Source: Promethearchaeota archaeon
Lineage (GTDB): Archaea; Asgardarchaeota; Lokiarchaeia; Sigyniarchaeales; SOKP01
Length of the DNA stretch: 43,857 nt
NCBI GenBank assembly: GCA_004524535.1
Contig: SDNY01000016.1
Span: 1-43,857, forward strand
Direction: 5' to 3'
Shown here: piece after piece, positions 6,020 through 37,051 of the stretch
How the letters are laid out: each line of letters opens with the position of its first letter
How positions within the stretch are numbered: position 1 is the first letter of the stretch
The notes under the pieces: model-generated
Told to the model about the DNA's origin: nothing
What the model saw: the letters and a program-made list of their open reading frames with translations, nothing else
Databases searched by the model: none
Program-made: the position numbers and the translations under genes

Positions 6020-7675
6020 TTAAATTACCTCCTTAATTTTTTCAGCTAATTCAATTGGATCAAAAGGACGCCCATCGTACTTATTAATTAGATACTTACT
6101 CTGAATATTTGCCTTTTCTTTTAGAAGTGAGGTGAATTGTCCCATTTTGCTCAATTCTATGGTTATTACGGGCTCATCTTTATATCTTTCCAGTTCCCAT
6201 ACTGGTAAGGGACTAAGATATATTGGCTGGATTATAGTCGCTTCAATGTCTCCATAGTGAAGAGCTTCTAATACGCTCATTGTAGTTGAACCATATGTAA
6301 AAATTAAAGGCCCCCCGGTTCCATATACATTTACCGTTTTTAGTTGCTTTAAAAAATCAATAATATGCATATTTTTTTTATACCTTTTATTATGCATTTT
6401 TGTTATTAGTTCGGGATTTTCAGTAGTTATCCCTAACTCATCATGTTCATAACTCGTCCATTTAATTATTTCTTTAGATGGTGGAAATAGTAATGGAGAA
6501 ATTCCGTCTTCTGTATCAAGATATCTTTTGTAGTCACCACTTTTATGGTATTTAGGTTCTGCCCACTTTATATTCTTCATCTCCATTTCAATTGTCATGC
6601 TACTCTCGGATAGATGTTTTTCAGTTAATATAATCCCTGGAGTTTGAAATTTCCAAACAAGATCAAGTAATTCTGCAGTTAGATAAAATGCCTCTTTTAT
6701 TGAACCAGGACATGCTACAATCCTTAAAAATTCACCATGTCCAGCATTTAAAGCAAAATTCAAATCACCTTGCTCTGTATAGGTTGGTACGCCTGTAGCA
6801 GGACCAGGTCTCATTGATAGGACGCATAATATCGGCGCTTCAGCCATTCCTGCCAATGAGAGCCCTTCAACCATAAGAGCAAATCCCCCTCCACTTGATC
6901 CAACCATAGCTTTAGCTCCTGCAAATGCAGATCCTATAGCCATATTAATAACAGCAATTTCATTCTCTGGATGTATAACTGCCAAACCAAATTTTTCTGC
7001 TTGAGCTGCTAATATGTGTAAAATAGAGGATGCAGGAGTCATGGGATACCCATAATAGGTATCTAAACCTCCTGCAATAGCTCCTAGTGCTATAGATTGA
7101 TTGCCCGTTAGGATAGGTCTTTTTTTATCTCCATTTTGAACTTCAAATTTATTATTTATAGTAGGAAATACAATATCGTAAATAGCATTCGCAAATGAGA
7201 TGTTATCTTCTACAAAACTAGGGTATTCTTTTTTAATTATTTCATTCAAATCATTTTTACTAATTCCTATTGAACACGCTAAAATAGCAACTGCTCCCAC
7301 ACCATATAAAAGATTTTTTGCAGGAAATTTTTTAGCTTCGCTATAAAAAGGGACACCAATTCCTTCAGCATTGTCAATTTCATCAGAATTATAAATAATG
7401 AGACCATTTTTATCAAGCTCATTGGCATGTATCTCATAACTTCTTTTATCTGAATTTACAATTAAACCTGCTTTCATATAATGACTATGTATCTCACTTG
7501 TAGCAGTGCTTATAACTGAGAAATTATGTCCTCCTCTTATTAAACTCATATAGTCATCCATCTGAAATACTTGTCTTCCTCTCTCAATAAAAATTTGAGA
7601 AGCAACAGAACCAGCCTTTTTTACACCTTCTCCAGCTTTACCTCCTACGATAAATGTAAAAACATTTTTTTTTAT
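6020..7675 (-). CDS. korA: 2-oxoacid:ferredoxin oxidoreductase alpha subunit (gamma-alpha fusion)
   Basis: YMSLIRGGHNF, GNQSIALG, GYPMTPAS, ENEIA, SSGGGFALM, RPGPATGVPT. The frame stays open upstream of the ORF-track ATG (7561) and encodes the conserved VFTFIVGGKAGEG. The most upstream start-like codon in frame is ATA 7675, 6 nt after GGTGA. Confidence 0.92.
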   Translation of the reverse strand: MKKNVFTFIVGGKAGEGVKKAGSVASQIFIERGRQVFQMDDYMSLIRGGHNFSVISTATSEIHSHYMKAGLIVNSDKRSYEIHANELDKNGLIIYNSDEIDNAEGIGVPFYSEAKKFPAKNLLYGVGAVAILACSIGISKNDLNEIIKKEYPSFVEDNISFANAIYDIVFPTINNKFEVQNGDKKRPILTGNQSIALGAIAGGLDTYYGYPMTPASSILHILAAQAEKFGLAVIHPENEIAVINMAIGSAFAGAKAMVGSSGGGFALMVEGLSLAGMAEAPILCVLSMRPGPATGVPTYTEQGDLNFALNAGHGEFLRIVACPGSIKEAFYLTAELLDLVWKFQTPGIILTEKHLSESSMTIEMEMKNIKWAEPKYHKSGDYKRYLDTEDGISPLLFPPSKEIIKWTSYEHDELGITTENPELITKMHNKRYKKNMHIIDFLKQLKTVNVYGTGGPLIFTYGSTTMSVLEALHYGDIEATIIQPIYLSPLPVWELERYKDEPVITIELSKMGQFTSLLKEKANIQSKYLINKYDGRPFDPIELAEKIKEVI

Positions 7676-7723
7676 AGGTTTTCACCATAATATTTTATTT
7701 TCTAACTTATTGAATAAGAATAA

Positions 7724-7731: not shown

Positions 7732-8145
7732 TCTGAAATAAAGGAATTTAAAATTATACCTTATTGTTTAAAGGATCTTTTAACCAAAAAAGCTAATACT
7801 ATAAAAAGAATAATAAAATCTCTTTTCTTTATATTTTTAGAATTTATAGATTAGATTTAAATAATTGATAATTTAGCAGAGTTAAATTTTAGTAAATTTA
7901 ATAATAATAAGATAATTCATATTTTACTTATATCATTTTAATTAAAACACTAATTTTTCAATATTTTATGAAGGAGAAATTTAAGAATTTGAATTTACTC
8001 GTATAAATTAAGTAAAATTTGGAAAACTTGGGTTTTATCATCATGGAATATGTTAAAGAAAATGAAAATTTAATTTAATCCATGATAGAGAAGAATCAGT
8101 TGACTCAGAAGATTTAATATTTATTTAATTAATTGAGGTGATTTT

Positions 8146-8316
8146 ATTATTAAAAAAACAGAACAAACCGTATTAAAGAAAGGGCAGTTTATCGACTCTT
8201 ATTGCTCAAATTTAAAGGAATGCATTGAAAGAAATGAATTTATTAAAAAATTTCGGGAAGAATTAGTAAAAAAGAAGTATGATAACCTTTTTAAAGTAAA
8301 ACAAGATGTTTTATAA
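8146..8316 (+). CDS. Candidate 55-56 aa basic small protein with an ATT start
   Basis: Perfect SD GAGGTGA (8135-8141) followed by ATT ATT and an open frame of 57 codons including the stop: (M)IKKTEQTVLKKGQFIDSYCSNLKECIERNEFIKKFREELVKKKYDNLFKVKQDVL. Confidence 0.45.
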   Translation: MIKKTEQTVLKKGQFIDSYCSNLKECIERNEFIKKFREELVKKKYDNLFKVKQDVL

Positions 8317-8385: not shown

Positions 8386-8643
8386 TTAGGGTTCAAGTGA
8401 TTTTCTTAGATCAATTCCAGAAATATCATCTTTTAAAACAGAATATTTTTTTAGAAGTATAGCTATAGCATGTAAATAATCCCATTCTAAATCGATAAAC
8501 TGTTCGCACACAGAACAATAATAATTTACAGTACTATTATATTTAATTAGTTTAGGTTTAAGTCTTCTAAAACAATAAGGACATAGTTTAGGCTTTGAAT
8601 CGTGAGCATTAATAATTTTTTTAACTTTTTCAAATTCTGCCAT
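8386..8643 (-). CDS. Small zinc-ribbon protein (two CxxC motifs), unknown function
   Basis: 85 aa with CPYC and CSVC. Its first codons are also preserved in the repeat copy at 38267-38286. Confidence 0.75.
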   Translation of the reverse strand: MAEFEKVKKIINAHDSKPKLCPYCFRRLKPKLIKYNSTVNYYCSVCEQFIDLEWDYLHAIAILLKKYSVLKDDISGIDLRKSLEP

Positions 8644-9205
8644 ATTTCAATCACTAATTTTTTAAAAAGATGCAAAACTAATAAATTTTAATCTTTGAGA
8701 CAGTTTATATTTATTAAGTACAAGATTTTTAAGGATATATTATATTTTTTAATAGACGATTTTAGATTTTCAATTAGGATTTATTTTAATGGTGTTTTTT
8801 ATGTCTAAAAGTAAAGAAAAAGCGATTCCTATAGGAAACGCAATTGAAAGTATTAATATTTCAAAAACTTATATCTCTGGAGAAGTAAAAGTTCAAGCAT
8901 TGAAAAAAATAAATTTTGAAGTAAAAAATGGTGAGAGATTAGTAATTTTAGGTCCTTCAGGATCAGGAAAAACAACATTGTTAAATTTATTAGGGGGTAT
9001 AACAAGTCCTGATGGAAAAAAAGGATCGCTGAATATATTTGGAAAAACTATTCATAGTTATAATCAAAAACAACTTAAAGATTATCGTCACGAAAGGATT
9101 GGTTTTATTTTCCAGTTTTTTAATCTGTTTCCTGCATTAAATGCCTTGGATAATGTAATAATTGGAATAGTTCTTCTTAAAAAAAATTAAAAAGTGATTT
9201 AAATT
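8624..9205 (+). repeat. Direct repeat copy 1 (~580 bp)
   Basis: Aligns to 38267-38849 with an offset of ~29643. It covers the start of the Zn-ribbon gene, the divergent intergenic region and the 5' half of the ABC ATPase. Roughly 93-94% identical by approximate manual count. Confidence 0.95.
8801..9190 (+). pseudogene. Truncated duplicate of the ABC ATPase at 38444
   Basis: Near-identical to residues 1-~130 of 38444..39181 (Walker A GPSGSGKTT). An A8 versus A9 run causes a frameshift and stop, and homology ends at ~9205. The signature motif and Walker B are missing. Confidence 0.92.
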
Positions 9206-12057: not shown

Positions 12058-12059
12058 GA

Positions 12060-19967: not shown

Positions 19968-20828
19968 TTAATCACTAAAAATCATTTTAAAATATATCTC
20001 TACATGATTTTTTAATTTCTTTAAGAGTTTGTAGTACTTTTTTGATAATTCATCTTTAAAGTCATGATAAAATTGTTTTTCAAGATATTTGTAAATAATA
20101 ATAAACTCTTGTGACCATTTCTTTAAAAAAGCGATTACAACATAAAAAAACCAAATTATAAACAGAGCAATGAAACTTGTAAAAAATATAATATCTGGAT
20201 CTCCAATACATATAGTTAAGAGATAATCTTCATTATAAAAATAATCTGAAAAAATTTTTTTATCACTTCTTAAAGAATGGTTTGTTATTAATCGAATTTC
20301 AATTTCCTTTCTTAAAGATTGGATTTTAAATTTTATGACACAAGAAATTCTCGATTTATCATTAGTTAATAAGAGATCATTATATACCGTTTTAGAGGGA
20401 TAATAATTATCAGGAATATTACTAAAATTAAAAACAGCATTAAGTTTATCATTAATTAGAATTTCAATTCTCAAGTGTTTTGTAGGATAAAACGTTTTTT
20501 CATTGGAATCAGAAGAATAATTCCAATCCCTATTAGTGTCTGCTTCAATTCGTAAGTTAAACTCTTTATTAACATATTCTTTTGGAACTTTTATTATAGT
20601 TATAACTGAACCTGTAGTTTCGGAGCCATAAATAAGCTCACTATTTTTCTCATTAATAGGTTTTTGAGCATATGTGAAGGAAAAAAAATTAGCCCTTTGT
20701 TGTAAATTTGTAGAAAATGGGTTGAGATTGATGTATATAAATATATCTATGATGGAAATAAAAATTATTGAAAAAATTAAAAAATTAGATCTTCTTAAAT
20801 TCTTTCTTAATGATAAATTGTTTCTAAT
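19968..20828 (-). CDS. Hypothetical membrane protein (~286 aa, two TM helices), probable ATT start
   Basis: The frame is open to 20882 with no ATG/GTG/TTG upstream of 20474. The extension encodes RKNLRRSN followed by the hydrophobic FLIFSIIFISIIDIFIYI. GGAG lies 8 nt before ATT 20828. Confidence 0.65.
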   Translation of the reverse strand: MRNNLSLRKNLRRSNFLIFSIIFISIIDIFIYINLNPFSTNLQQRANFFSFTYAQKPINEKNSELIYGSETTGSVITIIKVPKEYVNKEFNLRIEADTNRDWNYSSDSNEKTFYPTKHLRIEILINDKLNAVFNFSNIPDNYYPSKTVYNDLLLTNDKSRISCVIKFKIQSLRKEIEIRLITNHSLRSDKKIFSDYFYNEDYLLTICIGDPDIIFFTSFIALFIIWFFYVVIAFLKKWSQEFIIIYKYLEKQFYHDFKDELSKKYYKLLKKLKNHVEIYFKMIFSD

Positions 20829-21162
20829 TTTTTTTACTCCGTTATATAATAATTTATATATTATGAAAATTAATCGATAAAATTATTAATAACTGTGTAA
20901 TTTTAAATACTTAAATTTTTTTTTTCAATTTCGAGCAAATAAAATCCCATTAGAAAGACTTATTTTATTTTTTTGTGTTATTTTTACTATAATAACAAAT
21001 AATCTATATTATCGTAGATGCAAACCCTACAGCTGTGGAAAAATATCTTTAATATTTTCGGTTAGAAAAAATTGATATGAATTAATAAATTCTTAAAAAT
21101 TTGTAATAATTGAATAAAAATAGAATTGTTAGATAAAAAATATGAAAGGAGCGAAATAGTTT

Positions 21163-24100
21163 TTGATTAAAAATCTTTTCAAAAATAGTCTAATAGCTAC
21201 ATTTATTTTTGTTTTCATACTTATTTATTTGTTATTTTTATATGCACTCTACATTGTTCCAAATAATTTTGCTGATAAAATATCATTTATTATGATATTA
21301 GGATTTACTATTGTCATAGTAGGGGTGTTCTTAGCTGCTTTTCTAAAAACAAATTCTAGAAAAAATAGTGAAGTTTTCCTTAATTTTAATTTTATATCAG
21401 AGGATTTAATTAAAATAATTCTTTTAATTTCTATGATTGCTGCTTTTTTTATTCCTCCTATGAAAAACTCAATGGCTACAGATTGGCGACAGGTTCAAAC
21501 TATAAATTTTATTCGGGCAATTATTTACATTATCGGATCTTTATTCTTACCAGGTGCTTGTTTGTACAATTTCTTGTTCACTAAAAATGAACTTGAAGAT
21601 TTAGTAAAAATAGAGCCTTTTCTCCTAAAATTAACACTTTTTCCAATTTTTTCATTAGTTTTTATAGGAATTAGTGTTATGATATTAGACATAATAGGAT
21701 TAGTTAAAGAAATTTTCCAATTAATTCTACTTTTATTCTTTATCGGGCTTTTTATGATTGATCAAATTATAAAAATCAGAAATAGTGGTATTTATTTATT
21801 TTCTAAAGCTAAAATAAATATTTCAAGAAATTCATTTATTATCCTATTTATCGCAGCCGGTGTTTCAATTATTTCTCTTGGAATTTATATTTCTACAGAA
21901 TATCTTATACAAGGTGATTCTTGGTGGCCATTAGGCCCTTGTAATTATATAGGACGCAAAGATATCGATATAATTGATCTCTACCATGATCAACATTACC
22001 CTCCGTTTGCGGGTTATATCCTTGTTGGTTTAGGATCTTTAACTGGCCTACCATATTTAAATACTAATGCCCTTTTAGCTCCATTTTCTTATGTATCAAT
22101 AACCTCGATGTATATCTTTATGAAATCTATTTTAGATAAATATAATCCAGACTTTTCATATTTATCCACGATTTTAGTTTCGATATATGGAGGTCTGTTT
22201 CTACTTTATCCCATTCAAATTAATAATTGGTTTAATATATCTCATTATAGCTTTCGAAGTATGTTTATTTTTGATTATAAAACAATAACATTCATTCTTT
22301 TTTATATTGCATTGAGTTTTTTCTTTTATTCAATAGGGAGTAATTCAATAGTAGATAAATCCTCCAAAATAAATAAATTATATAAACCTCTTGAATTAAA
22401 ATTAATCATTTTAGCTTCTTTTTTATTGATAATTGGATATCTAATATATATGATTCCATTAATTCCTGCTATTTACATTAGTTTCTTTTATTTTCTTTTC
22501 TCAAAAAAGCAATTAAAAAAAAAAATCTTTTCAACACTCCTCCTTTTTTGGCTAATGATTATTTTATTTTTTATAATTTTTGATTTTGCATTAATGTTTA
22601 TTCTTAGTGATCTTTTTTATAACAAATTTGTAAAATATATTTTCACACCTCCATGGATTTCTCCCACTTTATTCGTTTATACCATCCTATTTAGTCTAGT
22701 ATTCTCTATTTTTCTTTTCTTTTTAATCTACAAAAAATTTTTTTATGAAAAAACTATTAGAATAGAGAAATTAAAGTTAAAACTAACTATTATCTATGCA
22801 ATATTTATCTTGGGATTTACTATCTTTATTTCAATTATTATTTATAATACAATAAAAAATCATGATGATATAAATAAACATTATATCCTTGTAAATCAGT
22901 TATCATTTGAATACATAATTCTGAATATTGGATTAATAGGTATATTGGCTATTTATTTTTTATATTTTTGTTTTAAAAATTATGAAAATAATAAAGAATT
23001 AGTAAATTTTTTAATATCCTGGATTCTTTTTTCATTAATTTTTTCTTCAATATCATTTATTCAAATTCGATTCGATAAGATAAATCCAACTTTTGAAGAT
23101 CTTCTATTTGCTTTTAATTGGTTTGATAAAAATTGGATTTTTGCAATCCCTGCATTTTCTATTTTAACCATTATCGGAGGATTTGAATTTAGAAAGAAAT
23201 TATGGAGTTTAAAAATCTTCAAATTAAATAAATTCAATACTTTATATATAAAGAGTTTAATTTGCACGAATAAATTATTGGCTATTTCATTAATACTAAT
23301 TTTATCTTATTCAAATATTATTATTGGAGGAGTATATAGAGGGAATACGGATGAAAATAGAAGAATGTCAGATGCGGAAGCCCAAGTTGTGGGTTGGGTT
23401 GCTGATAATATTGATCATGATTCTAATATCCTTATTGAAAACCGATTTCAACTATATACTCCTATTAATTACTTGATAAACTCAACAGTTTATTTGATAC
23501 ATAGTGCAAGAAATTTCGATCACATTTTCGATTACCAAATTCCTTATGAATTACAAACTTATAAATTAAAAGAAAATAAAATAGAATATGCGATATTTTA
23601 CGATGATATACACTACGGTTGTAATAAAAAGATGTCAAATTTCATAGATGGGTATTTAATTCCTTTTTTCTTTGACGAAGTCGTATACCATTATAAAGAC
23701 ATTACTATCTATCGAAGAGCACCTAACATTAAAATTAATGGGATATATAAGGCAACTTATAATTTTATTTATGATACTGTTGAGCTTAATGAATGGAATC
23801 TTTATGAAAAGGGAGGTGATGTAAAGGTTATTCTTGAACATAATGGACATAAAAAAGTCGTTCAATTATTTGATAATAATGAAAATAAGTTAGTTAAAAT
23901 GACTAATAGTTTTAATATACAAGAAAGCGGTACTATTGAATTATATTTTGAATCTACTGAAATAGAAGAAGAATTATCAATTAGACTTCAATCTAATTTT
24001 TATATAGGTCCATATATTTGTATTAAATCCTCTGAATTCTTGTATTATAATGGAACTCAATTTGTAACTATTTGTGATGCTCAAAAGGATACATTTTATC

Positions 24101-24351
24101 ATTTAAGGATTGATTTTGAGTGTGGAAATAAAACTTATGAGGGTCTTAATCAAGATGAATTTTTCATATATATCAACGATATAAAATATGGCCCCTTTAA
24201 TTTTTCAGAAGATATTAATACAGTTGACAAATTTGTAATAGCGACAAGTAAGGAATTTAAAAATGGTTCTGTATATTTGGATGCAGTAGGTTATTCCTGG
24301 GATGGAAACTATAATATTGGTGATAATAAACTGGAAATAATGACAGCATGA
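21163..24351 (+). CDS. Large polytopic GT-C-like membrane protein with a C-terminal extracellular domain (paralog A)
   Basis: Many TM helices; loop motif GDSW...YPPF; post-TM EAQVVGWVADNI...ILIE segment resembling the STT3/ArnT soluble domain; terminal YHLRIDFE...YLDAVGYSWD...IGDN beta domain. Confidence 0.65.
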   Translation: MIKNLFKNSLIATFIFVFILIYLLFLYALYIVPNNFADKISFIMILGFTIVIVGVFLAAFLKTNSRKNSEVFLNFNFISEDLIKIILLISMIAAFFIPPMKNSMATDWRQVQTINFIRAIIYIIGSLFLPGACLYNFLFTKNELEDLVKIEPFLLKLTLFPIFSLVFIGISVMILDIIGLVKEIFQLILLLFFIGLFMIDQIIKIRNSGIYLFSKAKINISRNSFIILFIAAGVSIISLGIYISTEYLIQGDSWWPLGPCNYIGRKDIDIIDLYHDQHYPPFAGYILVGLGSLTGLPYLNTNALLAPFSYVSITSMYIFMKSILDKYNPDFSYLSTILVSIYGGLFLLYPIQINNWFNISHYSFRSMFIFDYKTITFILFYIALSFFFYSIGSNSIVDKSSKINKLYKPLELKLIILASFLLIIGYLIYMIPLIPAIYISFFYFLFSKKQLKKKIFSTLLLFWLMIILFFIIFDFALMFILSDLFYNKFVKYIFTPPWISPTLFVYTILFSLVFSIFLFFLIYKKFFYEKTIRIEKLKLKLTIIYAIFILGFTIFISIIIYNTIKNHDDINKHYILVNQLSFEYIILNIGLIGILAIYFLYFCFKNYENNKELVNFLISWILFSLIFSSISFIQIRFDKINPTFEDLLFAFNWFDKNWIFAIPAFSILTIIGGFEFRKKLWSLKIFKLNKFNTLYIKSLICTNKLLAISLILILSYSNIIIGGVYRGNTDENRRMSDAEAQVVGWVADNIDHDSNILIENRFQLYTPINYLINSTVYLIHSARNFDHIFDYQIPYELQTYKLKENKIEYAIFYDDIHYGCNKKMSNFIDGYLIPFFFDEVVYHYKDITIYRRAPNIKINGIYKATYNFIYDTVELNEWNLYEKGGDVKVILEHNGHKKVVQLFDNNENKLVKMTNSFNIQESGTIELYFESTEIEEELSIRLQSNFYIGPYICIKSSEFLYYNGTQFVTICDAQKDTFYHLRIDFECGNKTYEGLNQDEFFIYINDIKYGPFNFSEDINTVDKFVIATSKEFKNGSVYLDAVGYSWDGNYNIGDNKLEIMTA

Positions 24352-24656
24352 AATAGCTTTAATTTTTTATAAATTACTTTTTATTGAAATATTACTAGAT
24401 TAAAACCTTTCTTATGATTAGCACTTTTTTTTAGAATAATTTTCTTTTTCTCCAAGAATATGTAGATATGGATAAACTAATTGATGAGAAAAGTCCATTT
24501 AAAAGTAATAAATATTTGAAATTTTAAATATTATTCAAATCAGAATATCTAAAACGAGATTAATTTAAAATAATTAGAATAGATAAAAAGTAATAAAAAC
24601 TTCGAAGTTATCTTTCTTTTCTAAAGAGTTGTCTAAAATAGAGAATTTTTAAAATT

Positions 24657-25361
24657 TTATTTCAAAGCCTTTCTTAATTTCTGATATCCTAATAATTCTG
24701 CATCTTTCTTATATCTTAATTCTATTTTTTCTAACAAAGTATCATCTAATTCACGATAATAATCCATCCAAGAATCATAAAGAGGTTTAAATAATTGATC
24801 TTTACTTTTTTTTTTTTCAGGCAATTTTACTTGAGGAATGTTTAATTTTTGAAAAAATTTTATAAATTCTGCATTTAATTCTTCAAATTTCAAATTGTAA
24901 TTATACCTTGGTCTTTCTTTTTCATCAAATAATATTCTATATTGCGAAATCCAATGTGGATCAGCAAATTTATCTTGACCTTCTTTGCTGCATAGCCAAT
25001 TTACAAAATTTTCGAAACTCATTAAAGGGTATAATCCTTTATATTGGCATATGATACCAATTTTTACTATAATGTTAGCATTAAGTATTTTTTTATTATA
25101 GCAAGAAACAACTCTACTCCAAGGATTTCTAGTTATACAAAATTTTAAATATTTTTCATATTTTTGATTATGATTTAATAGTTCTTTTAAATCATTTTTT
25201 ATAAGGTAGGAATCAAAATCTAATGGAGGATTGTAAATAAATAAATCTAATACTGTTTGTGATGCTGCAAGAGGATTTTCTATATATATGAATTTATACT
25301 TATTTGAAATAATTTTCAAGGCATTTTTTTTTCCAAATTTTGTACTGAATAAATTTTTCAT
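24657..25361 (-). CDS. Sulfotransferase family 2 (CHST/HNK-1ST-like); may extend to an ATA start at 25502
   Basis: YKFIYIENP, KFCITRNPWSRVVSCY, SFENFV, DPHWISQY, KFEEL and YKKDAELLGY. Confidence 0.85.
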   Translation of the reverse strand: MKNLFSTKFGKKNALKIISNKYKFIYIENPLAASQTVLDLFIYNPPLDFDSYLIKNDLKELLNHNQKYEKYLKFCITRNPWSRVVSCYNKKILNANIIVKIGIICQYKGLYPLMSFENFVNWLCSKEGQDKFADPHWISQYRILFDEKERPRYNYNLKFEELNAEFIKFFQKLNIPQVKLPEKKKSKDQLFKPLYDSWMDYYRELDDTLLEKIELRYKKDAELLGYQKLRKALK

Positions 25362-25639
25362 TAAGTTAATTCGAGAATATATTATGCTTAAAATTTTATA
25401 TATGATATTAATAATTCTTACATTAGAGATAGGAAAACTAATTTTATAGATTAAATCGTATAAAATTCTCTTAATTATATAATTTAACTCGCTTTTTATT
25501 ATAGTAATTCTCTCCTTACATAAATTTTTTTATGAATATTAGAATTTTATTTTATCCTACTTTTTTATTTCTAATTTATTCTTATTTTAAAAAAACATTA
25601 AAAATTTTAAGTTTACTCTTTTTTATAAACAACTATAAA

Positions 25640-26644: not shown

Positions 26645-26817
26645 GAACTCTCCTTATTTAAGTTTTTATTATATTAATAGATTGCAAATCAAATCTTCTA
26701 ATTACGCTAAAACTCTTAAATGTTTATTCTAAGGGAAGTATAAAATAATATAAATTTTTTTTAAATATTTAAATAATATAAAATAGTACTTTATATAAAT
26801 TTTAAAATTACATAATA

Positions 26818-27690: not shown

Positions 27691-27828
27691 ATAGATTTTA
27701 AACATAGCAATATGAAATTGCTTGGGTAGCCTCATATCTCTTTTTTTTAAAATCTAATTCAAAATAATGGTTTCAATTTTAAAAAAAAAAAATTTTTAAA
27801 AGTTCAATTGTTTTTATATTAGATTATA

Positions 27829-29607
27829 ATGGGTGGGATTTGTGGATTTAATTGGAACGATAAAGAGTTAATTCATAGAATGGTAAATTCTATCATCCAT
27901 AGAGGGCCTGATGGTACAAATTATTTCATTGGTAATAAAGTATCATTAGGTTATGCTAGGCTCGCTACCATTGATCTATTAAAAAGGAGTGGAGAATTAA
28001 TTCATAATGAAGATAGTACATTATGGATAGCATTGAATGGTGTGATTTATAATTACCATAATATTCGAAAAAACTTGGAACATCTTGGTCATAAATTTTA
28101 TACGAACACTATTGCTGAAACCATATTACACTCATATGAACAGTATGGCTATCGATGCTTAAATACTTTTAATGGACAATTTACATTTTGTATTTATGAT
28201 GTTAATAAAAAAAATCTTTTTTTAGCTCGAGATAAATTTGGAATAAAACCATTATATTATTATTACAAAAATAATCGGTTCATCTTTGGCTCTGAAATAA
28301 AAGCTATTCTCCAATATGATTTAGAAAAGAAAATCAAGAAAGAAGCTTTAAGAGAATACTTTACTTACAGATTCACAATTGCTCCAAATACGATATTTGA
28401 AGATATTTATAAATTAAAACCCTCTCATTATATAATTCTAAATTTGGAAACAAATGAGATAACTTTGAAGAGTTATTTTAGGCTGGATATTGATTTAAAG
28501 ATGTCTATACCTATGAAAGAAATCGCATTTATAACTTTTAAACTATTGAACCAATCTGTAAAGCTAAGAATGACTGCTGATGTACCCATTTGCACTTTTT
28601 TATCTGGAGGTATAGACTCCAGTATAGTAACAGGTCTTGCGTCTCAATATAATAAAAATCTAAATACATTTTCAGTGGGATTTGAAAATTCTAATGAATT
28701 AAATTATGCAAAACTAGTATCTGATTACTTCAATACAACCCACCATGAATATATACTAACTAATGATGACGTAATTAAAGAATTTGATAAAATGATATTT
28801 CATATAGATGAGCCAATAGGAGACGCTGCTTTTTTACCAGTCTTATTTCTTTCTAAACAGATGAGTAAAAAATTTAAAATTGCATTAACCGGAGATGCTG
28901 GAGATGAAGTATTTGGAGGGTATGATAAATATAAGATGTTCTATTATGGACGATTTATCTCAAAATTCATTCCAAAAATCAAAATAAATCAAGAAATAAT
29001 AAGGAGACTATCGAAATTATCTGAATTAAGAGATATTGACGCTTATATAGAGACAATACGAGTATTTTCTGATGAGGATTTGAGTAAATTGCATATAGAA
29101 CCCAGAAAAACCTATAAATATTGGATAGAAAATTTAAGAACAATGCAAAAAATGCAATTTTATGATTTAAATACTTCGGTTACTGAAGATTTCAATATGA
29201 AATCTGATAAAATGAGTATGGCTTTTGGTGTTGAACAGCGATTTCCTTTTGCAGATGAAAGAATAATTAAGTTTGCGTTAAGTTTACCCCTGAAATTGAA
29301 ACTCCGCTTTTGGAATGAAAAATTTTTGTTAAAAAAATCTTTCTCCACATTTTTGCCTAAAACAATAGTTAAGAGAAGAAAAAGAGGATTTAATACTCCT
29401 ATGGATGACTGGTTTAAAACAATTCTAAAAGAGCGTTTTATAAATTTACTGACTAATAAATCTCATAAATTATATAACAAAGAACATGCAATAACACTTT
29501 TTAAGAGATTAATAAAAAGTAGTTCAAATTATAAAAGAAATTTTCTTTTAAGCCAAAAGCTTTGGACAATTTTTGTTTTTGAAGAATGGTATAATCAAGT
29601 GTTCTAA
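27829..29607 (+). CDS. AsnB-family ATP-dependent amide ligase with an inactivated glutaminase domain
   Basis: Full length. LSGGIDSS, DEPIGD and GDEVFGGY are kept, but it has MGGICG (Cys2->Gly), NGVIYN and TNTIAE. Confidence 0.9.
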   Translation: MGGICGFNWNDKELIHRMVNSIIHRGPDGTNYFIGNKVSLGYARLATIDLLKRSGELIHNEDSTLWIALNGVIYNYHNIRKNLEHLGHKFYTNTIAETILHSYEQYGYRCLNTFNGQFTFCIYDVNKKNLFLARDKFGIKPLYYYYKNNRFIFGSEIKAILQYDLEKKIKKEALREYFTYRFTIAPNTIFEDIYKLKPSHYIILNLETNEITLKSYFRLDIDLKMSIPMKEIAFITFKLLNQSVKLRMTADVPICTFLSGGIDSSIVTGLASQYNKNLNTFSVGFENSNELNYAKLVSDYFNTTHHEYILTNDDVIKEFDKMIFHIDEPIGDAAFLPVLFLSKQMSKKFKIALTGDAGDEVFGGYDKYKMFYYGRFISKFIPKIKINQEIIRRLSKLSELRDIDAYIETIRVFSDEDLSKLHIEPRKTYKYWIENLRTMQKMQFYDLNTSVTEDFNMKSDKMSMAFGVEQRFPFADERIIKFALSLPLKLKLRFWNEKFLLKKSFSTFLPKTIVKRRKRGFNTPMDDWFKTILKERFINLLTNKSHKLYNKEHAITLFKRLIKSSSNYKRNFLLSQKLWTIFVFEEWYNQVF

Positions 29608-29739
29608 TTTCTTCATGTTCAATGTAATTAAACATATATAACTAATATATAAACATAGTTTATTTTTGAGCAAAAATTCAATACAATAATTTAAGGTTTT
29701 TTACTTTAGCTTAAAACTTTTATAGACTTTCATTAAAAT

Positions 29740-31521
29740 ATGTGCGGAATTTGTGGTTTTAACTGGAACGATAAGAACCTTGTTGGTAAAATGATTCATA
29801 CACTTAAACATAGAGGTCCAGATGATTCGGGAAACTACTTGGATAATGAGGTTTCTCTAGGTCACACCAGATTAGCGATAATTGATCTGTCTGCTAAAGG
29901 AAAACAACCAATTCATAATGAAGATAATTCAATTTGGATAATATTTAATGGAGAGATTTATAATTATCAAGAAATTAAAAAAAGATTATTAAAAATGAAT
30001 CATAACTTCTACACGAATACTGATACAGAAGTTATTATACATGCGTATGAGCAATTTGGTACTGAGTGTTTAAACCAATTTAATGGTCAATTTGCATTTT
30101 GTATTTATGATTCAAATAAAAAATCTCTATTTTTAGCTAGGGATCGTTTTGGAATAAAACCCTTATATTATTTTTTTAAAAATAACTCTTTCATCTTTGC
30201 TTCCGAAATAAAATCTATTCTTCAGTACGATTTTAAGAAGAGTATAAATAAAAAGGCTTTACGGGAATACTTAACTTTTAGATTCACTATTGCACCAAAT
30301 TCAATATTTAACAATGTTTATAAACTCTATCCCTCCAGTTATCTTATCTATGATTTGGACAAAAATTCTTTGAAAATTAATAAATATTATACCCAAGAAA
30401 TCCAAAGCTCTTATAAATATGATATAAACACCCTAACCTCAACCATATATAAATTAATTAATGATTCTGTAAGATTAAGAATGATCGCTGATGTTCCTGT
30501 CTGTAGTTTTCTTTCTGGTGGAATAGATTCAAGTATTATTACATATATGGCAACCAAATATAATCCAAATATAAACACCTACTCGGTTGGGTTTGAAAAC
30601 TTTAGTGAACTAAAATTCGCAAAAATAGTTTCTGACTATTTTAAAACAAATCATCATGAATTAATAATAAAGAAGGAAGATGTTTTAGGAAATATTGAGA
30701 AGATGATATATCACATGGATGAACCTATAGGAGATGCAGCATTTTTTCCTACACTTCTTATTTCAGAGTTAGTTAGTAGAGATTACAAAGTAGTATTAGC
30801 AGGAGAAGGTTCAGATGAGATATTTGGAGGATATGATAAATACAAATTATTAAATTATGGGAAGAAAATATCTTGGTTTTTACCAAAAGTAAGATTTCAA
30901 AATGACATTCTCCAAAGGATTGGTAAATTCTCAAAATTAGATGACTATCAAGGATATATTGAAGTTATTCGTGCTTTTACTGATGAAGAATTAAAACTAT
31001 TAAAACTCTCTTTCATCCAAATGAAGCAATTTCAGAAAAGAGGGTTAAATAGATTCCAAAAAATGCAATTTATTGATTTAAACACTTCTTTATGTGAAGA
31101 TTTTTTTATGAAAGCGGATAAGATGAGTTCTGCTTTTGGACTTGAAGAAAGAGTCCCGTTCATGGATCATAGACTTGTTTCATTTGCTTTAAATTTGCCA
31201 ACAAAACTCAAGTTGCGTTTTTGGAATGAAAAATTTATTTTAAAACAGACTTTTTCAAATATCTTACCGAAAGTTATAATTAAGAGGAGAAAAACAGGAT
31301 ATAATACACCAATGGATTTGTGGTTAAAAACTGTTATAAAAGACAGATTTTTGGAAATATTCCATCAAAACCGCCATAATCTTTACAAGAAGGATTATAT
31401 CATTGATTTATATAATAGACTTTTAAAAACAGGATCAAATTATAAACAAAACTTTTATTTGGCACAGAAATTATGGTCTATATATGTTTTCGAAGAATGG
31501 TTTAACCAATATATGAATTAG
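29740..31521 (+). CDS. asnB: Asparagine synthase (glutamine-hydrolysing) family amidotransferase, probably glycan-amidating
   Basis: MCGICG, HRGPD, GHTRLAIID, NGEIYN, TDTEVI, ARDRFGIKPLYY, LSGGIDSS, GEGSDEIFGGY and EERVPFMDH. Confidence 0.93.
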   Translation: MCGICGFNWNDKNLVGKMIHTLKHRGPDDSGNYLDNEVSLGHTRLAIIDLSAKGKQPIHNEDNSIWIIFNGEIYNYQEIKKRLLKMNHNFYTNTDTEVIIHAYEQFGTECLNQFNGQFAFCIYDSNKKSLFLARDRFGIKPLYYFFKNNSFIFASEIKSILQYDFKKSINKKALREYLTFRFTIAPNSIFNNVYKLYPSSYLIYDLDKNSLKINKYYTQEIQSSYKYDINTLTSTIYKLINDSVRLRMIADVPVCSFLSGGIDSSIITYMATKYNPNINTYSVGFENFSELKFAKIVSDYFKTNHHELIIKKEDVLGNIEKMIYHMDEPIGDAAFFPTLLISELVSRDYKVVLAGEGSDEIFGGYDKYKLLNYGKKISWFLPKVRFQNDILQRIGKFSKLDDYQGYIEVIRAFTDEELKLLKLSFIQMKQFQKRGLNRFQKMQFIDLNTSLCEDFFMKADKMSSAFGLEERVPFMDHRLVSFALNLPTKLKLRFWNEKFILKQTFSNILPKVIIKRRKTGYNTPMDLWLKTVIKDRFLEIFHQNRHNLYKKDYIIDLYNRLLKTGSNYKQNFYLAQKLWSIYVFEEWFNQYMN

Positions 31522-31540
31522 GCTTATATATTTTTTATTT

Positions 31541-32300
31541 CTAAAAGTTTTTATAGAATTCATACACTCGTTCGGTTATAGCATCCCAAGAATATTGCTT
31601 TTCAATCAAAAGTCTTGCATTTTTACCAAGCCGAGTACAGCGTTCATTATTATTAATCAAATCAAGTACTAAATCTACTGCATTATGATATTTTGATATA
31701 TCATATAATAAACCATTCTCATTATGTGTAATTATATTAGAGATTCCACTAACGTTGGATGAAACTATAGGAGTGACACAAGTAAAACCCTCATAAATTA
31801 CATTTGGCACACCCTCTGTGCGGGAAATAATTAGTAAAACTCTACTTTGATTATAAATTTCTTGTATTTTTTCATATGGATATGAAGCAATGAGTTTTAT
31901 CGGTAGCTTTTTCTGTGCATCTTGAACCATTCGCTTTAAAGGACCTTCTCCGACTATTAAGAATTCCAAACTATTATCTTTATCAAATAATTTTTTAGCA
32001 ATTTCTAAAAATATATCTACACCCTTAATATATGATAATCTTGTTGCTAATAGTGTAATATATCTTCTTTCAATTTTATCATTCCTCTTATATCTGAAAA
32101 TATCCACACCATTAGAAATATGCGCAGTTAATTTACTTTCCAGATTATAGCGTTCTTTAATAATTTTCAAATCTTTATAAAAAACTGAGATTATAGCATC
32201 AACTGTTTTAATTGGCTGTTTACCAATTATTCTATCAAAAAATAACTCCTAAAACATCAGCTGAAAATTCTCGAACATGCTTGACATTTTTGAATCCTAT
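31541..32300 (-). pseudogene. Decayed GT4 glycosyltransferase (paralog of 32420..33562)
   Basis: The C-terminal half is intact (YITLLATRLSYIKG, SRTEGVPNVIYE). Homology continues upstream of 32170 through an in-frame TAG at 32249-32251 (FENFQLMF*ELFFD vs YENLQLFFKKNIFD). The N-terminal domain is lost. Confidence 0.85.
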
Positions 32301-32419
32301 TAAATTAAGTTAATTTAAAAGATCTTTTCTTAAAATTTCGGATTATCTGTAAAATGAATGGATTAATAAGATTTTTAGAGATCTAAATTAATTTATAAAG
32401 TTTTCTAAGAATTAAAAAG

Positions 32420-33562
32420 TTACTTATAATATAGTTCTTTATAAATGTTATATATTTTATCAGTAATAACATCCCATGAATAATCTTTTTGCATTAATTC
32501 TCTTCCATTTTTACCAAAAGAAGCTATTTTCTCATCATCATTAACTAAATCTAATATATATTTAACAGATTCTTTATAATTATTTATATCAAATAAATAT
32601 CCATTTTTATTATGAGAAATCACTCCCGAGATACCTCCTACGTTAGTGGAAATAACTGGAGTTTCGCTAGCAAAACTTTCATAAAGAACATTTGGAGTTC
32701 CCTCAAAACGAGAAGTAATTAACAACATCTTGCTTTTATTATAAACATTCTGTATTTTATCATGAGGATAGTCTGGGTAATATTTAATGGGGATTTTGTT
32801 TTGAAGATTTAATATCATATTTTTTAAATTACCATTTCCTATGACCAAAAATTTCAGGTCTTGATTTTTTTTATATAATTCATTGACAATTTTAATAAAT
32901 ATATCAATTCCTTTGATATAAGAGAGTCTTGTAGCAATTAATGTTATATATTTTCTTTCTTTTTTAGGATTTGGCTTAAATTTATCTAAGTCAACTCCGT
33001 TTGGAATGAAATGAGTATCTTTTGAATTAAGATTATATTTTTGACGAATAAAATCAAGGTCTTTTTGATTAACAGAGATTATTTTATCAGCTTTTTTAAA
33101 GGGTAATTTTCCAAGAGTAGGATCGAAAATATTTTTTTTAAAAAATAATTGAAGGTTTTCGTATTTGCTACAATCATGATTTTTATAGGTCTGAATTCCT
33201 CCGTGTACATGTAAGACTAATGGAAATTTATACAATAATTTTAATAATACCGCTTCTAATGTAGTGAAAAAATAATATCCATGTACATGAACAATATCAA
33301 AATCTTTTTTGTGTTTTTTTAAAAAATGTAAAATATTCACAATAGGATTTTTATTCCATAAATAAAAAAAACATCTCTTATAAACAATTTCTACATGGTC
33401 TTGTAAAACTTTATTTTTTATATGTTGTTTCAATAGATCTGAAGTAAGTATCACATTCTCAACCCTCTTTCTATTAGCTAAGTTTAATGATAATTGTTTA
33501 CAGTAAAGTTGAGTCCCACCAATAAAATCTGGTGGAAATGGCACAATTCTTAAGATTTTCAA
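32420..33562 (-). CDS. Glycosyltransferase family 4 (GT-B)
   Basis: MKILRIVPFPPDFIGG, DIVHVHG, IPNGVD, SRFEGTPNVLYE (E-x7-E) and PVISTNVGG. TTG start after AAGTGA. Confidence 0.92.
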   Translation of the reverse strand: MKILRIVPFPPDFIGGTQLYCKQLSLNLANRKRVENVILTSDLLKQHIKNKVLQDHVEIVYKRCFFYLWNKNPIVNILHFLKKHKKDFDIVHVHGYYFFTTLEAVLLKLLYKFPLVLHVHGGIQTYKNHDCSKYENLQLFFKKNIFDPTLGKLPFKKADKIISVNQKDLDFIRQKYNLNSKDTHFIPNGVDLDKFKPNPKKERKYITLIATRLSYIKGIDIFIKIVNELYKKNQDLKFLVIGNGNLKNMILNLQNKIPIKYYPDYPHDKIQNVYNKSKMLLITSRFEGTPNVLYESFASETPVISTNVGGISGVISHNKNGYLFDINNYKESVKYILDLVNDDEKIASFGKNGRELMQKDYSWDVITDKIYNIYKELYYK

Positions 33563-33838
33563 TGAATTTCACTTAAAATTTTGTCTATGATTTAATAAGA
33601 TTTCTATTCTTTTAATTTTATTTATTAAAATTATTATCAATTTTTTGATTATTGACAGTTTAATTATATTCTAATTAAAATTTTTCTAATGGATATTTAC
33701 AAATATATAGTTGATTTTATTTAATAAAAGATTTCTTTTTTGGCTTGAAAAAAGTCTAAGTTGAGAAGAGAATTTTCTTTATAATACACTAATATAATCT
33801 CTATTATCTTGAAATATTTAAAAACTAGTAAATTCTTA

Positions 33839-36800
33839 TCAAGACTTTATTGAACTATAAAATAAATTATCTCCTATATCGTAATTTAAGTCCCACGAAT
33901 ATCCAATTGCATCTAAATATAAATTTTCATATTCCTTCTCAGTAATATCGGTTTCAATGACAAAATTCTCAATGCTTATTGGACTTCCTTTAAAATCTAA
34001 TTCCCCAGAATTAATTCCATTAACAAAAATTCTATATTTTTTTGGGTTCAAGCCTAAATAACCATTATTTCCACTTTCAAAATCGATTCTTACATGATGC
34101 CATTTGTAAGCGGAAGGTTTTTCTACATAGGGAATAGTACGATATGTAACACCATCATGAAAGAACCAGCCATCACTCCGAATTAAAAACAAAGGACCAA
34201 ACAAGCCCTTTCCCGCGAGTCCAAATTTGACATTATTGGAGGGATATGAATGAAAGATCCAAAATTCAATAGTGCCAAATGCCTGTGGAGAATTAAAATT
34301 TTGAGTAGCATAAGCATTTACAGTAACGTCATTGTCAAAAATTTGCATAATTTTTCTATGACTTAGATAACTTCCTAAAATCTTAATATAACATTTATTA
34401 GATGCTAGTGAAACATTCCATCCTAATGGTATTGCTCCAATTTCATCATTATCGAATGAGAATGTTCCGTTATAATCTCTTAATTCATAAACTCCTATAT
34501 CCTCAATTTCAGGAGCATAATATACGGCGAGATTCTTATATCTATATAATTCTTTTGAATATATTTCAGGTAATAAATAATTATCGATAAAATCTATATC
34601 ATTGCTGGAAGCTCCAGGATGGTCATCGTAAAAAATTGCATATTCAACGTTTCTTCGTTTTATTTCATCAAGTTGTTCTAAATATGGGTTATTAATATAA
34701 AATAATCCTGTTTTTCCCCCATAATTAGGCAAAAAATAACAACTGTCTCGTTCAAAGAAACTTGAAATAATACAATGTATTTCATAATCATTCTCAATTA
34801 GAATTCTTGAATCGTAATTTAAATTTTCAGTAACCCAACCTAATACATTAGCTTCTGCTTCTGTCAATTTTTCATCAATATTACCTTGGATAGCTCCACC
34901 TATGAGAACATTTGAATATGAGGTGATAATTAATAAAGAGACAACTGATAATTTGAAGAGATAAATAAAATTTCTATTTCTAAAACCTATATGAAAACGG
35001 GATATTTTCTTTGAGTATTTGAGAAAATTTAATAACTCGATACTCCCAATTGAGGCAAGAGTACTAAAAGCAGGAATAGCGGAAAACCAATTTTTTTCAA
35101 ACCAATTTATAGCTCCTAAATAATAATAACTATTAATTTCATAACTTTGAAAAGTATCAAAAGTAATAATAAAAAATAGATATAAAGAATAAGAAATTGA
35201 TATGATAACCCATGAAGTCAGGAAATAGAATAAATCTCTGTATTTTTTAAAGCAAAAATATGATAAATATATACCGATGATTCCAATAATCCCAATATAT
35301 AAAAAAATATAAATGATTGCGTAATACCAATAATTCTCCAAGAAAAAGATATATTTATAGGTGTAGAATATAAAAATAATATTATAAACATTTATCAATA
35401 CAAAAATTGTGAAAAGTGAAAGCAAAAGAATAAATAGATATTTAGGATTCACATTTAATTTTGAATGCTTCTTATATCTGTCTAATAATGACTTAGTTCT
35501 AATAAACTTAATAAATGAGATGAAAAGAATTAATCCAATAAAACTACCATATGTAAAAGTAAATTTATTGAATATTTTTGGAAAATCGAAATATTTCGAA
35601 TATTTCTTATAATAGAGATGACTTAAAAAAAAGTCTGCTGATATATCAAAAATAAAAAATAAAATAAATAATAGAATTAAATGCAGTTTAAAAGATTGAA
35701 ATCTCCTTTTTATATTAATTCTTTCTGAAAAGAAACAATTTAAAAAAATTATATAAATACCTATAATTAGAGGGATCATATAAATCATAAAAGCTATGAC
35801 TAAAACGTAAGAGGATAGAAATAGAACTTTAAAGTCTTCAGATCTGTAAAACTTTTTCGAAGTCATATCGAAATCCTCATCTGATTTTATAAAAAATAAG
35901 CTAATTGATATATATAACAGAAGATAAGCGAAAGTTTTATAATCAAAATTGAATTGACTACGAAATGTATAATGAGAGATACTGCCCCACTGATTAATAA
36001 TCAATGGGTAAAAGCAAAAAAAACCTCCATAAATTGATATCAAGATTGTTGATAAAACAGCGTAATTTTCATTATAATTCTTTAATATCGATTTTATGAA
36101 AAGATACATACTCGTTATTGATAAATAACAAAATGGTGCTAACAACGCATTAGTATTCATAAATGGAATTCCGGTTAAACTAGCTAATCCAAAAATTATA
36201 TACCCCCAAAATATAGGATAATTACGATCTTTTCCATAATCAATTGGTTTTATTTGATGTTTTCCGATATAATTAGCAGAACCTATCCCAATCCATGCGT
36301 CTCCTTTAATATTATATCCTACGGAAAATAAAATTCCAAGAGCAAATAATGAAACACCTGCAGCTACAATTAGAACAATAAGTGTATTTTTTGAAATTTT
36401 TAAATATTCAAATTTTAGGTTTAGATCATCTTTTCTCTTTTTTTTAATGATCAAATTGAAAAAAAAAAATCCTAAAATTATAAATAACAAAAATGGTGAG
36501 AAGAATTTTTTTAATACTCCAAATCCATCAAGGATAAATACACTTACACCGATAAATGTAAAAGACAAAATTGGATATAAAGTAATTTTTAAAAAAAAAG
36601 ATTCTATATTGAATCTTTCGTGGAGAGTATTTTCTGGAAAAATTAAATCAAAAAGACATGCACCTGGAAGAAATGCAGATCCAATTATAAAAATTATGGC
36701 TCTAATTAAATTAAGTATATTAATTTCTTCCCAATTAAGAACTGTAGTCACAAATTCAATAGGAGGTATTAAAAAAGCGAATAACATTAACAGTATAAGA

Positions 36801-37051
36801 ATAAATTTGAAATTATCCTCAGAGATGCATCTAAATCGAATTAAAGCTTTATTCCTCAAATTAGATTTTAGTGTCACAAATAAAAAAAAACCAGATATTA
36901 CAGTAAAAAAACCTAAAACCATTATAAAAGAGATTTTATCATCTAAATCATTAGGAATTAAGAAGATTTCAGATAAATAGATATAATATAAAATAATAAA
37001 TACAAAAACAAATACAAAAATAAGAGATTTCCGCAGTGTATTTTTTAGCAG
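33839..37051 (-). CDS. Large polytopic GT-C-like membrane protein (paralog B), probable CTG start, ~1070 aa
   Basis: Colinear with 21163..24351 (GDAW...YPIF, NTNALLAPF, SHYTFRS.F.FDYKT, NWFEKNW, YLDAIGYSWD). The frame upstream of 36922 aligns without gaps to paralog A up to CTG 37051, which is preceded by GAGGGA. Confidence 0.7.
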   Translation of the reverse strand: MLKNTLRKSLIFVFVFVFIILYYIYLSEIFLIPNDLDDKISFIMVLGFFTVISGFFLFVTLKSNLRNKALIRFRCISEDNFKFILILLMLFAFLIPPIEFVTTVLNWEEINILNLIRAIIFIIGSAFLPGACLFDLIFPENTLHERFNIESFFLKITLYPILSFTFIGVSVFILDGFGVLKKFFSPFLLFIILGFFFFNLIIKKKRKDDLNLKFEYLKISKNTLIVLIVAAGVSLFALGILFSVGYNIKGDAWIGIGSANYIGKHQIKPIDYGKDRNYPIFWGYIIFGLASLTGIPFMNTNALLAPFCYLSITSMYLFIKSILKNYNENYAVLSTILISIYGGFFCFYPLIINQWGSISHYTFRSQFNFDYKTFAYLLLYISISLFFIKSDEDFDMTSKKFYRSEDFKVLFLSSYVLVIAFMIYMIPLIIGIYIIFLNCFFSERINIKRRFQSFKLHLILLFILFFIFDISADFFLSHLYYKKYSKYFDFPKIFNKFTFTYGSFIGLILFISFIKFIRTKSLLDRYKKHSKLNVNPKYLFILLLSLFTIFVLINVYNIIFIFYTYKYIFFLENYWYYAIIYIFLYIGIIGIIGIYLSYFCFKKYRDLFYFLTSWVIISISYSLYLFFIITFDTFQSYEINSYYYLGAINWFEKNWFSAIPAFSTLASIGSIELLNFLKYSKKISRFHIGFRNRNFIYLFKLSVVSLLIITSYSNVLIGGAIQGNIDEKLTEAEANVLGWVTENLNYDSRILIENDYEIHCIISSFFERDSCYFLPNYGGKTGLFYINNPYLEQLDEIKRRNVEYAIFYDDHPGASSNDIDFIDNYLLPEIYSKELYRYKNLAVYYAPEIEDIGVYELRDYNGTFSFDNDEIGAIPLGWNVSLASNKCYIKILGSYLSHRKIMQIFDNDVTVNAYATQNFNSPQAFGTIEFWIFHSYPSNNVKFGLAGKGLFGPLFLIRSDGWFFHDGVTYRTIPYVEKPSAYKWHHVRIDFESGNNGYLGLNPKKYRIFVNGINSGELDFKGSPISIENFVIETDITEKEYENLYLDAIGYSWDLNYDIGDNLFYSSIKS

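Follow-up and report, generated by a model that had tools for sequence, protein, structure and literature searches.

Evidence for Shine-Dalgarno-led near-cognate start codons in a family of Lokiarchaeia

The window analyzed here is the whole contig SDNY01000016.1 (43,857 nt; C44) of a Lokiarchaeia genome (assembly GCA_004524535.1, designated G000; 3.66 Mb in 198 contigs, 30.4% GC), in which five genes seem to begin at ATA, ATT or CTG codons located behind Shine-Dalgarno (SD) motifs. Based on sequence comparisons, we propose that in the family of this genome within Lokiarchaeia (named f1; the sister family is f2) a few per cent of ordinary genes begin at SD-led near-cognate codons, and we assign to this reading a probability of approximately 0.85. 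A first-pass annotation of the window had suggested relaxed, SD-directed initiation in this lineage. This suggestion is supported by homology, which puts the N-terminus at the ATT or ATA codon at four of the five sites (korA, a small open reading frame (ORF), a membrane protein and the protein sulfotransferase-2), an excess of ATT and ATA codons which is specific for the SD sequence, and the exchange of ATG with ATT, ATA or ATC (together ATH) between orthologous starts. The lineage in question is the family f1 as sampled. In the following, NTG stands for ATG, GTG or TTG, the first of which is the start that a standard gene finder accepts.

Five proposed near-cognate starts in the window

The 3' end of the 16S rRNA of G000 is ...GGATCACCTCCT and the full SD complement is AGGAGGTGATC; at ATG genes of this genome, GGTGA ends 4-10 nt upstream of the start. 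Based on this complement, GGTGA, GAGGTGA and AGGAG are true SD matches of 5-7 nt. GGAG and GAGG match it over 4 nt only. The five non-canonical starts were found with exactly the coordinates and SD spacings listed in the first-pass annotation, and at each of them the frame contains no ATG, GTG or TTG from the upstream stop to the proposed start codon. The motifs had been described as good SD motifs, which is true for korA, the small ORF and sulfotransferase-2 (5-7 nt) and not for the membrane protein and the fifth gene, paralogue B (4 nt only). Only two of the five sites are retained when the strict genome-wide criteria described below are applied.

The gene korA (6020..7675, minus strand) encodes a 2-oxoacid:ferredoxin oxidoreductase, which is a fusion of the gamma and alpha parts. 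The proposed ATA start (7675-7673) is separated by a 6-nt spacer from the SD GGTGA (7686-7682). When counted from this ATA, the Pfam domain POR (gamma) starts at residue 14, and the first ATG is codon 39, past the GG.AGEG motif. The aligned start codon in 13 f1 orthologues is ATG in nine cases, ATT in two (G008 and G015) and ATA in two, including G012 (13 of the 14 full-length f1 orthologues are covered; L011 was left out and L015 is incomplete). The korA protein of G008 is 90% identical to that of G000. Thus, the upstream extension of korA, for which the first-pass annotation had claimed support by homology, is backed both by the position of the POR domain and by the ATG, ATT and ATA codons aligned with it in orthologues. 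A 16-codon frame that begins with ATG 7688 (7641-7688, minus strand) is peculiar to G000; it overlaps the SD and the start of korA and is not kept in G008.

The second site belongs to a gene for a small protein of 56 aa on the plus strand (8135..8316 including the SD). It starts at ATT 8146 or ATT 8149, with 4 nt between the SD GAGGTGA (8135-8141) and ATT 8146. The frame is kept in G008, where ATT ATT ATT follows an identical GAGGTGA, and homologues of 49-58 aa with an ATG start behind an SD were found in G007, G004 and G014; they have the core C..C...ECIERS.FVK in common. Since the frame is kept in G008 and the ATG-started homologues share this core, the small ORF is a real small-protein gene. 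A reading as a GTG-started gene with a slip in an A7 run was ruled out, since G008 has A6G at this place and yet the ATT frame is intact. As to the surrounding DNA, an intergenic stretch separating korA from the small ORF (7950-8040) is nearly unchanged in G008, more so than the adjoining coding DNA, and at 8074-8128, just upstream of the SD of the small ORF, G000 contains 55 nt more than G008.

The third site is the start of a membrane-anchored protein of 286 aa (19968..20828, minus strand), where ATT 20828 is located 8 nt downstream of GGAG (20840-20837). In its open frame of 304 codons, not a single NTG is present over the 118 codons after this ATT. Two homologues (52% identity), P0019 with 278 aa and P0020 with 267 aa, have their initial methionine aligned with ATT 20828, and both share the 118-codon extension, which corresponds to a signal anchor and the next 100 residues. 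At the fourth site, the gene for a sulfotransferase-2 family protein of 281 aa (24657..25502, minus strand) starts at ATA 25502, with a 9-nt spacer behind AGGAG (25516-25512). All 15 homologues compared have 45-75 residues in front of the motif KI.S.KY.FIYI, and P0003 aligns through the 47-codon extension of sulfotransferase-2 (LYKIIYKFNF.. vs LYDLIYKISF..). For both proteins no match was found in 29 relatives, and the homologues came from a large protein collection instead. The expectation that standard annotation truncates such genes is supported by these two: the public call P0001 for sulfotransferase-2 has 234 aa, starting from an ATG, and not 281 aa, and the public calls for the membrane protein, P0017 on this contig and P0018 in a related metagenome-assembled genome (NCBI), have 168 aa, starting from TTG codon 119, and not 286 aa.

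The fifth site is CTG 37051 at the beginning of paralogue B (33839..37051, minus strand), a large multi-pass membrane protein. It is located 6 nt behind GAGGGA (37063-37058), of which only GAGG matches the SD. This CTG aligns with TTG 21163, the start of paralogue A (21163..24351, plus strand), which is preceded by AGGAG. Six homologues in G001, G004, G005 and G007 start with TTG (five) or ATG (one), a few codons upstream of a common K-N-[LIT] motif and of the first transmembrane helix; starting paralogue B at its first ATG would drop this helix. The extension of paralogue B is thus in agreement with the starts of paralogue A and of the homologues, while its SD is weak (4 nt), and from the alignment we judge that the protein probably starts at CTG 37051. 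Pfam revealed no family for paralogue A or B, so that "GT-C paralogue B", as the protein had been named in the first-pass annotation, is a label only.

SD-led ATT and ATA codons are enriched in the genome

For the genome-wide analysis, stop-to-stop frames of at least 100 codons were scored by their codon usage (log-odds, with the longest frames as training set), and 2941 non-overlapping ORFs were kept. We considered in-frame codons between the upstream stop and the first ATG, GTG or TTG, located at least 5 codons before this first NTG. A codon was regarded as SD-led when it was 5-7 nt behind a contiguous SD match of at least 5 nt. With these settings, 46 of the 1076 ATT codons (p 6e-21) and 25 of the 918 ATA codons (p 4e-8) in leaders were SD-led, compared to a non-ATH background of 0.73%. 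The total of 71 observed SD-led ATT and ATA codons stands against approximately 15 expected ones. Pairs of SD and ATH are thus commoner than the AT content predicts, contrary to an objection foreseen in the first-pass annotation. This strict count gives an excess of approximately 56 genes, or 1.9%. CTG was SD-led in 3 of 51 cases. The control codons AAA (6/1682), AAT (6/1027), TTA (5/954), TTT (10/973) and TAT (2/675) were without excess (0.4-1.4x background), and control SD strings gave low counts as well, with 10 ATT and 7 ATA for the reversed and 5 ATT and 4 ATA for the complemented string.

The frequency of ATH peaks at an SD spacing of 5-7. When an earlier set of 3213 ORFs was examined at spacing 6, ATT or ATA was the in-frame codon at 37 of 74 sites, compared to 5-14% ATH and 0-4% NTG off-frame. 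A frequent form is GG-TGA-NNN-NNN-ATH, in which the stop codon opening the frame is a part of the SD. If the count covers the first NTG and every leader codon before it, an SD of at least 5 nt leads ATG 149 times (149 of the 2026 first-ATG codons, at 5-7 nt), ATT 55 times, TTG 42 times, ATA 35 times and GTG 10 times; ATT and ATA together account for 90 SD-led codons compared to 149 ATG. The 67 codons led by an SD of at least 7 nt include 24 ATG, 8 ATT, 7 ATA, 3 TTG, 3 CTG and 2 GTG.

NTG-free leaders of at least 25 codons are present in 171 of the 2941 ORFs, and their codon-usage scores are intermediate between those of coding and non-coding controls. As a rough estimate, genes started by ATH or CTG make up approximately 2-8% of the total, with a soft upper bound, since pseudogene fragments would be counted too. 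A first estimate from coding leaders (253 ORFs, approximately 58% of them coding-like) was inflated by antisense ORFs and was replaced by the non-overlapping set. A TATA-box position test for leaderless mRNAs gave no clear peak.

Candidate genes outside of the window and spread in related genomes

To find counterparts of the candidates, 77 SD-led ATT, ATA, ATC and CTG codons of G000 were compared by tblastn with 1.17 Mb of G005, which belongs to the same genus. In this sample 27 candidates were matched, 20 of them from residue 1-2 and the other seven only from residue 4 or later. At the 20 aligned starts, the codon in G005 is ATT, ATA or ATC in 11 cases, ATG in five and another codon in four; according to inspection by eye, three of these four have an in-frame ATT or ATA within three codons.

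Pfam was applied to 20 candidates hand-picked from the 60 most stringent ones for a recognizable N-terminus or a match in G005, which are thus not a random sample, and 13 of the 20 gave a family at E <= 1e-5. Profile position 1 corresponds to residue 2 in HisA (ATA, 7-nt SD), in two small GTPases and in a Lactamase_B_3 protein (CTG, 7-nt SD), and profile position 2 corresponds to residue 3 in SucC (ATT). FtsZ (C174:33123-34238) has an ATA start with a 7-nt SD, and ribosomal protein uS12 (C72:1948-2379) has an ATC start, which is also ATC in G005 (protein 97% identical). In both genes the first NTG is located inside the domain. Small GTPases of the Ras/Arf-like and Gtr1/RagA-like types, started by ATT or ATA, were found at C119:22318, C147:6070-6723, C22:1244-2191 and on C115 (candidate c53); their public N-termini may lose the first beta-strand or a part of the P-loop context. 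The absence of any in-frame NTG between the upstream stop and the conserved N-terminus is common to korA, the membrane protein, sulfotransferase-2, the small ORF, aIF1 (see below), HisA, SucC, the GTPases, FtsZ and uS12.

The enrichment was also found in relatives. In G005, 11 of 312 ATT (p 2e-5) and 9 of 279 ATA codons (p 2e-4) are SD-led, and in G015, which represents another f1 genus (0.4 Mb), the same is true for 4 of 118 ATT (p 2e-3) and 4 of 87 ATA codons (p 7e-4). No significant signal was obtained with G025 from f2 (0.8 Mb, 31% GC; ATT 4/205, ATA 1/127), though its first ATGs are SD-led in 73 of 421 cases. Since the signal is present in three f1 genomes and not significant in the f2 genome, the trait extends over the family as sampled and is weak or lacking in the one f2 genome.

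A probable near-cognate start of the gene of the initiation factor aIF1

In archaea, the fidelity of start-codon choice is ascribed to aIF1. The sole SUI1 gene of G000 (C174:10556-10882) is a frame of 108 codons without ATG, GTG or TTG before the zinc knuckle CPICSFPKELCIC. Its best match among solved structures is 4mo0 (aIF1; E 5e-25), and since residue 5 of the frame aligns with residue 3 of 4mo0, the start should be ATC at 10565. The region is readable in 20 of 21 f1 genomes, and in all 20 the codon at this position is ATT (16), ATC (3) or ATA (1). Most of these codons are preceded, at a distance of 8-9 nt, by a conserved AGGTTGTGA, which is an SD broken by two mismatches and has variable flanks, and in 15 of the 18 genomes compared in frame the gene lacks any in-frame NTG. 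Thus, in f1 the factor that rejects near-cognate codons would itself depend on a near-cognate start. The first-pass annotation had proposed to inspect the aIF1 sequence, and this revealed the probable near-cognate start of the gene, while comparison of the residues with those of 4mo0 gave nothing diagnostic. Upstream of aIF1, the element AGG TTG TGA (C174:10530-10570, L039/L040) corresponds in the aIF1 frame to a TTG followed by a stop, 9 nt before the ATC; this start-stop is kept in most f1 genomes.

The initiator tRNA of G000, located by pattern search, is canonical (GGGCTCATAACCC, GGG/CCC stem, CAU anticodon). It is encoded on the minus strand of C174 (approximately index 17010 of the reverse strand), and an intron-like unrelated sequence directly follows the anticodon stem. 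From the whole genome, aragorn recovered no more than 9-12 tRNAs; most tRNA genes of G000 are therefore probably interrupted or unassembled.

Other features of the window

The TTG starts that had been reported as frequent are present at 4915 (GAGGT), 21163 (AGGAG) and 33562 (GTGA), and TTG 12392 exists without a clear SD. According to Pfam, the first belongs to a TusA-family gene (4661..4915, minus strand), which also has an in-frame GTG at 4930, and the third to a GT4 glycosyltransferase (32420..33562, minus strand). A sixth candidate (31541-32248, minus strand) lacks a canonical start over 26 codons; its product corresponds only to the C-terminal half (Glycos_transf_1) of a GT4 enzyme, and since it is probably a remnant, it was not counted. 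It adjoins the intact GT4 gene 32420-33562, and a stretch of 80 nt is 71% alike between them.

The membrane protein, sulfotransferase-2 and paralogue B are encoded inside a low-GC block of 29.6 kb which is absent from G008 and contains genes for sulfotransferases, glycosyltransferases, asparagine synthases, a NosD/beta-helix protein and two huge membrane proteins. The block is bounded by direct repeats of approximately 470 nt (8624-9094 and 38267-38737, 90-95% identical). The left repeat comprises the promoter and the first 133 codons of an ABC ATPase gene, a complete copy of which (38444-39181) follows after the right repeat. At 15823-18494, four diverged 86-nt repeats in the gene of the NosD/beta-helix protein (1332 aa) represent internal repeat units of the protein.

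Discussion

The observations could be explained without near-cognate initiation if the proteins started at the next downstream ATG, GTG or TTG and the upstream stretches were untranslated or the genes were decaying. The public calls P0001, P0017 and P0018 use such downstream starts, and the extension of sulfotransferase-2 has a codon-usage score of 0.13 bits per codon, which is no better than that of non-coding controls. However, downstream starts would delete the GG.G.G motif of the POR domain in korA, the G-box of FtsZ, the zinc knuckle of aIF1 and profile position 1 of the HisA, SucC and GTPase domains. They would also strip three window proteins of their first transmembrane helix, and homologues carry matching N-terminal sequences. 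In our judgement, homology outweighs the low score in the case of sulfotransferase-2, and downstream starts in general are very unlikely. A sequencing or assembly error, i.e. a homopolymer indel or a miscall of a G at the third base, is suggested at one place, since upstream of korA G000 has ATGGTGAAAACCTAT followed by A9, and with A8 an ATG-started frame would result. This frameshift reading, with ATG 7688 and an A9 run one base too long, is refuted by G008, which has ATT at the korA codon and, at the position of 7688, ATG TTT TGG TGA without a usable upstream ATG, and by the independently assembled genomes G012 (ATA) and G015 (ATT). Moreover, the orthologous starts are ATH in both G000 and G005 in 11 of 20 cases and the enrichment is codon-specific. 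In the contigs of X1-X4 aligned over 20000-37200, no difference was found at 20826-20828, 25500-25502 and 37049-37051 among the substitutions listed (there are 756 further ones, and the depth is low), which speaks neither for nor against the bases there. Since the independent genomes G005, G008, G012 and G015 keep ATH or have ATG, errors can practically be excluded, and so can pseudogenes. Editing of the third base to G in the mRNA, by which the ribosome would meet AUG, is extremely improbable: direct near-cognate initiation is what predicts the dependence on the SD and the fixed spacing of 5-7 nt, and we know of no such editing in archaea.

The last alternative concerns the cause of ATH initiation and not the fact. 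It assumes that ordinary SD-led initiation tolerates AUU and AUA without special relaxation and that AT pressure erodes ATG where a good SD suffices; the weak aIF1 start would then be just one more case. In line with this, the GC content of G000 is only 30.4%, a single G-to-T or G-to-A change turns ATG into ATT or ATA, and GTG is rare among the SD-led starts (10, compared to 42 TTG). Codons of this type are also included as rare starts in NCBI table 11. However, the f2 genome G025 has a similar GC content and more SD-led ATG, and nevertheless no significant ATH signal. Furthermore, ATH starts are used by highly expressed or essential genes (uS12 and FtsZ) and are kept between species, and the near-cognate start of aIF1 is kept together with its upstream element in 20 of 20 f1 genomes from many genera. 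Erosion without a change in stringency is a fair alternative for the cause, but the less probable one.

Several observations weigh against the proposal that near-cognate initiation is a trait of f1 in which aIF1 has a part. The gene set is ORF-based with a codon-usage filter and not a curated annotation, and the sequencing runs containing the stretch comprise 14 DNA and 0 RNA runs. The enrichment of CTG relies on three cases with p 0.006 before correction for approximately 60 codons, and CTG 37051 has a 4-nt SD only. ATC is not significantly enriched in G000 (3/233), yet it is the proposed start of both aIF1 and uS12 there. In three of the 18 f1 aIF1 genes (G012, G015 and G031), an in-frame GTG inside the SD-like element is a possible start. 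In f2, aIF1 has an in-frame TTG, GTG or ATG in 8 of 9 cases and ATA only in 1 of 9, and only four related genomes underlie the proposed link between ATH use across the genome and the start codon of aIF1.

How could near-cognate initiation work in f1? A minority SD-led pathway would accept AUU and AUA, less often AUC and CUG, and frequently UUG. Presumably, the Met-tRNAi with its canonical anticodon loop is set on the codon 5-7 nt downstream of the duplex between the SD and the 3' end of 16S rRNA, and the N-terminal residue would be methionine. Start-codon stringency in f1 would be set low, and aIF1 may hold it low by negative feedback on its own near-cognate start behind an imperfect SD. By analogy to IF3 acting on the AUU of infC and to eIF1 acting on an AUG in poor context, we tentatively consider this feedback step possible. 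The wider proposal, in which the whole family lives at a lowered stringency held by aIF1 throttling its own AUY start, and which would be the archaeal counterpart of the IF3/infC-AUU and eIF1 loops, is somewhat doubtful.

Near-cognate starts in f1 are important for several reasons. Since genes begin at ATT, ATA or CTG behind an SD, gene finders limited to ATG, GTG and TTG shorten f1 proteins; they would truncate or miss at least approximately 2%, perhaps up to approximately 8%, of the f1 genes. Those affected include FtsZ, uS12, aIF1, enzymes of the central metabolism and small GTPases, which are used in arguments on the origin of eukaryotes, and the truncation loses signal anchors and first transmembrane helices as in the three window proteins. 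Further, with AUU and AUA at approximately one quarter of the SD-led starts and with a near-cognate-started aIF1, f1 offers a natural system for studying how stringency of the archaeal and eukaryotic type is set. If the wider proposal is true, the closest archaeal relatives of eukaryotes possessed a fidelity circuit that tunes itself through the SUI1 factor, and N-termini are mis-annotated in several per cent of the proteins of Asgard archaea, small GTPases included.

Comparison with known systems

In our literature search, which left subscription journals mostly outside, no paper on ATT, ATA or CTG starts in Asgard archaea was found. SD sequences are described as not prevalent in Lokiarchaea (PMC7531240, PMC12993045), and in agreement with this only 149 of the 2026 first ATGs of G000 are SD-led. 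The analyses in these two papers relied on annotated starts, and genes with an ATH start behind a strong SD were invisible to them.

In bacteria, SD-led starts of the AUU/AUA type are found in infC and also in pcnB. The E. coli infC gene, which encodes IF3, is described in PMC3326321 as being under translational autocontrol via its AUU start codon. The f1 genes resemble infC in the near-cognate AUH codon at optimal distance behind an SD, in the AUY start of the gene of a fidelity factor itself, and in the family-wide conservation. In contrast to bacteria, the f1 archaea have the eukaryote-type factors aIF1, aIF1A and aIF2 and no IF3. Moreover, near-cognate starts in f1 extend to at least approximately 2% of the genes, FtsZ and uS12 included, and not only to one or two regulatory genes, and autocontrol is a prediction in f1.

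The second known system is eIF1, which is described to autoregulate its synthesis via the poor context of its own AUG, with an eIF1/eIF5 loop setting stringency (PMC3326321). The archaeal aIF1 and eIF1 are orthologous SUI1-domain proteins, and the start of aIF1 is itself suboptimal and deeply conserved in f1. However, in f1 it is the codon that is suboptimal, as an AUY following an imperfect SD, and not a Kozak context; scanning and eIF5 are lacking, and the f1 loop is a proposal. In summary, SD-led initiation at near-cognate codons is of a known kind; what is unusual is how often one archaeal family uses it, with aIF1 among the genes concerned.

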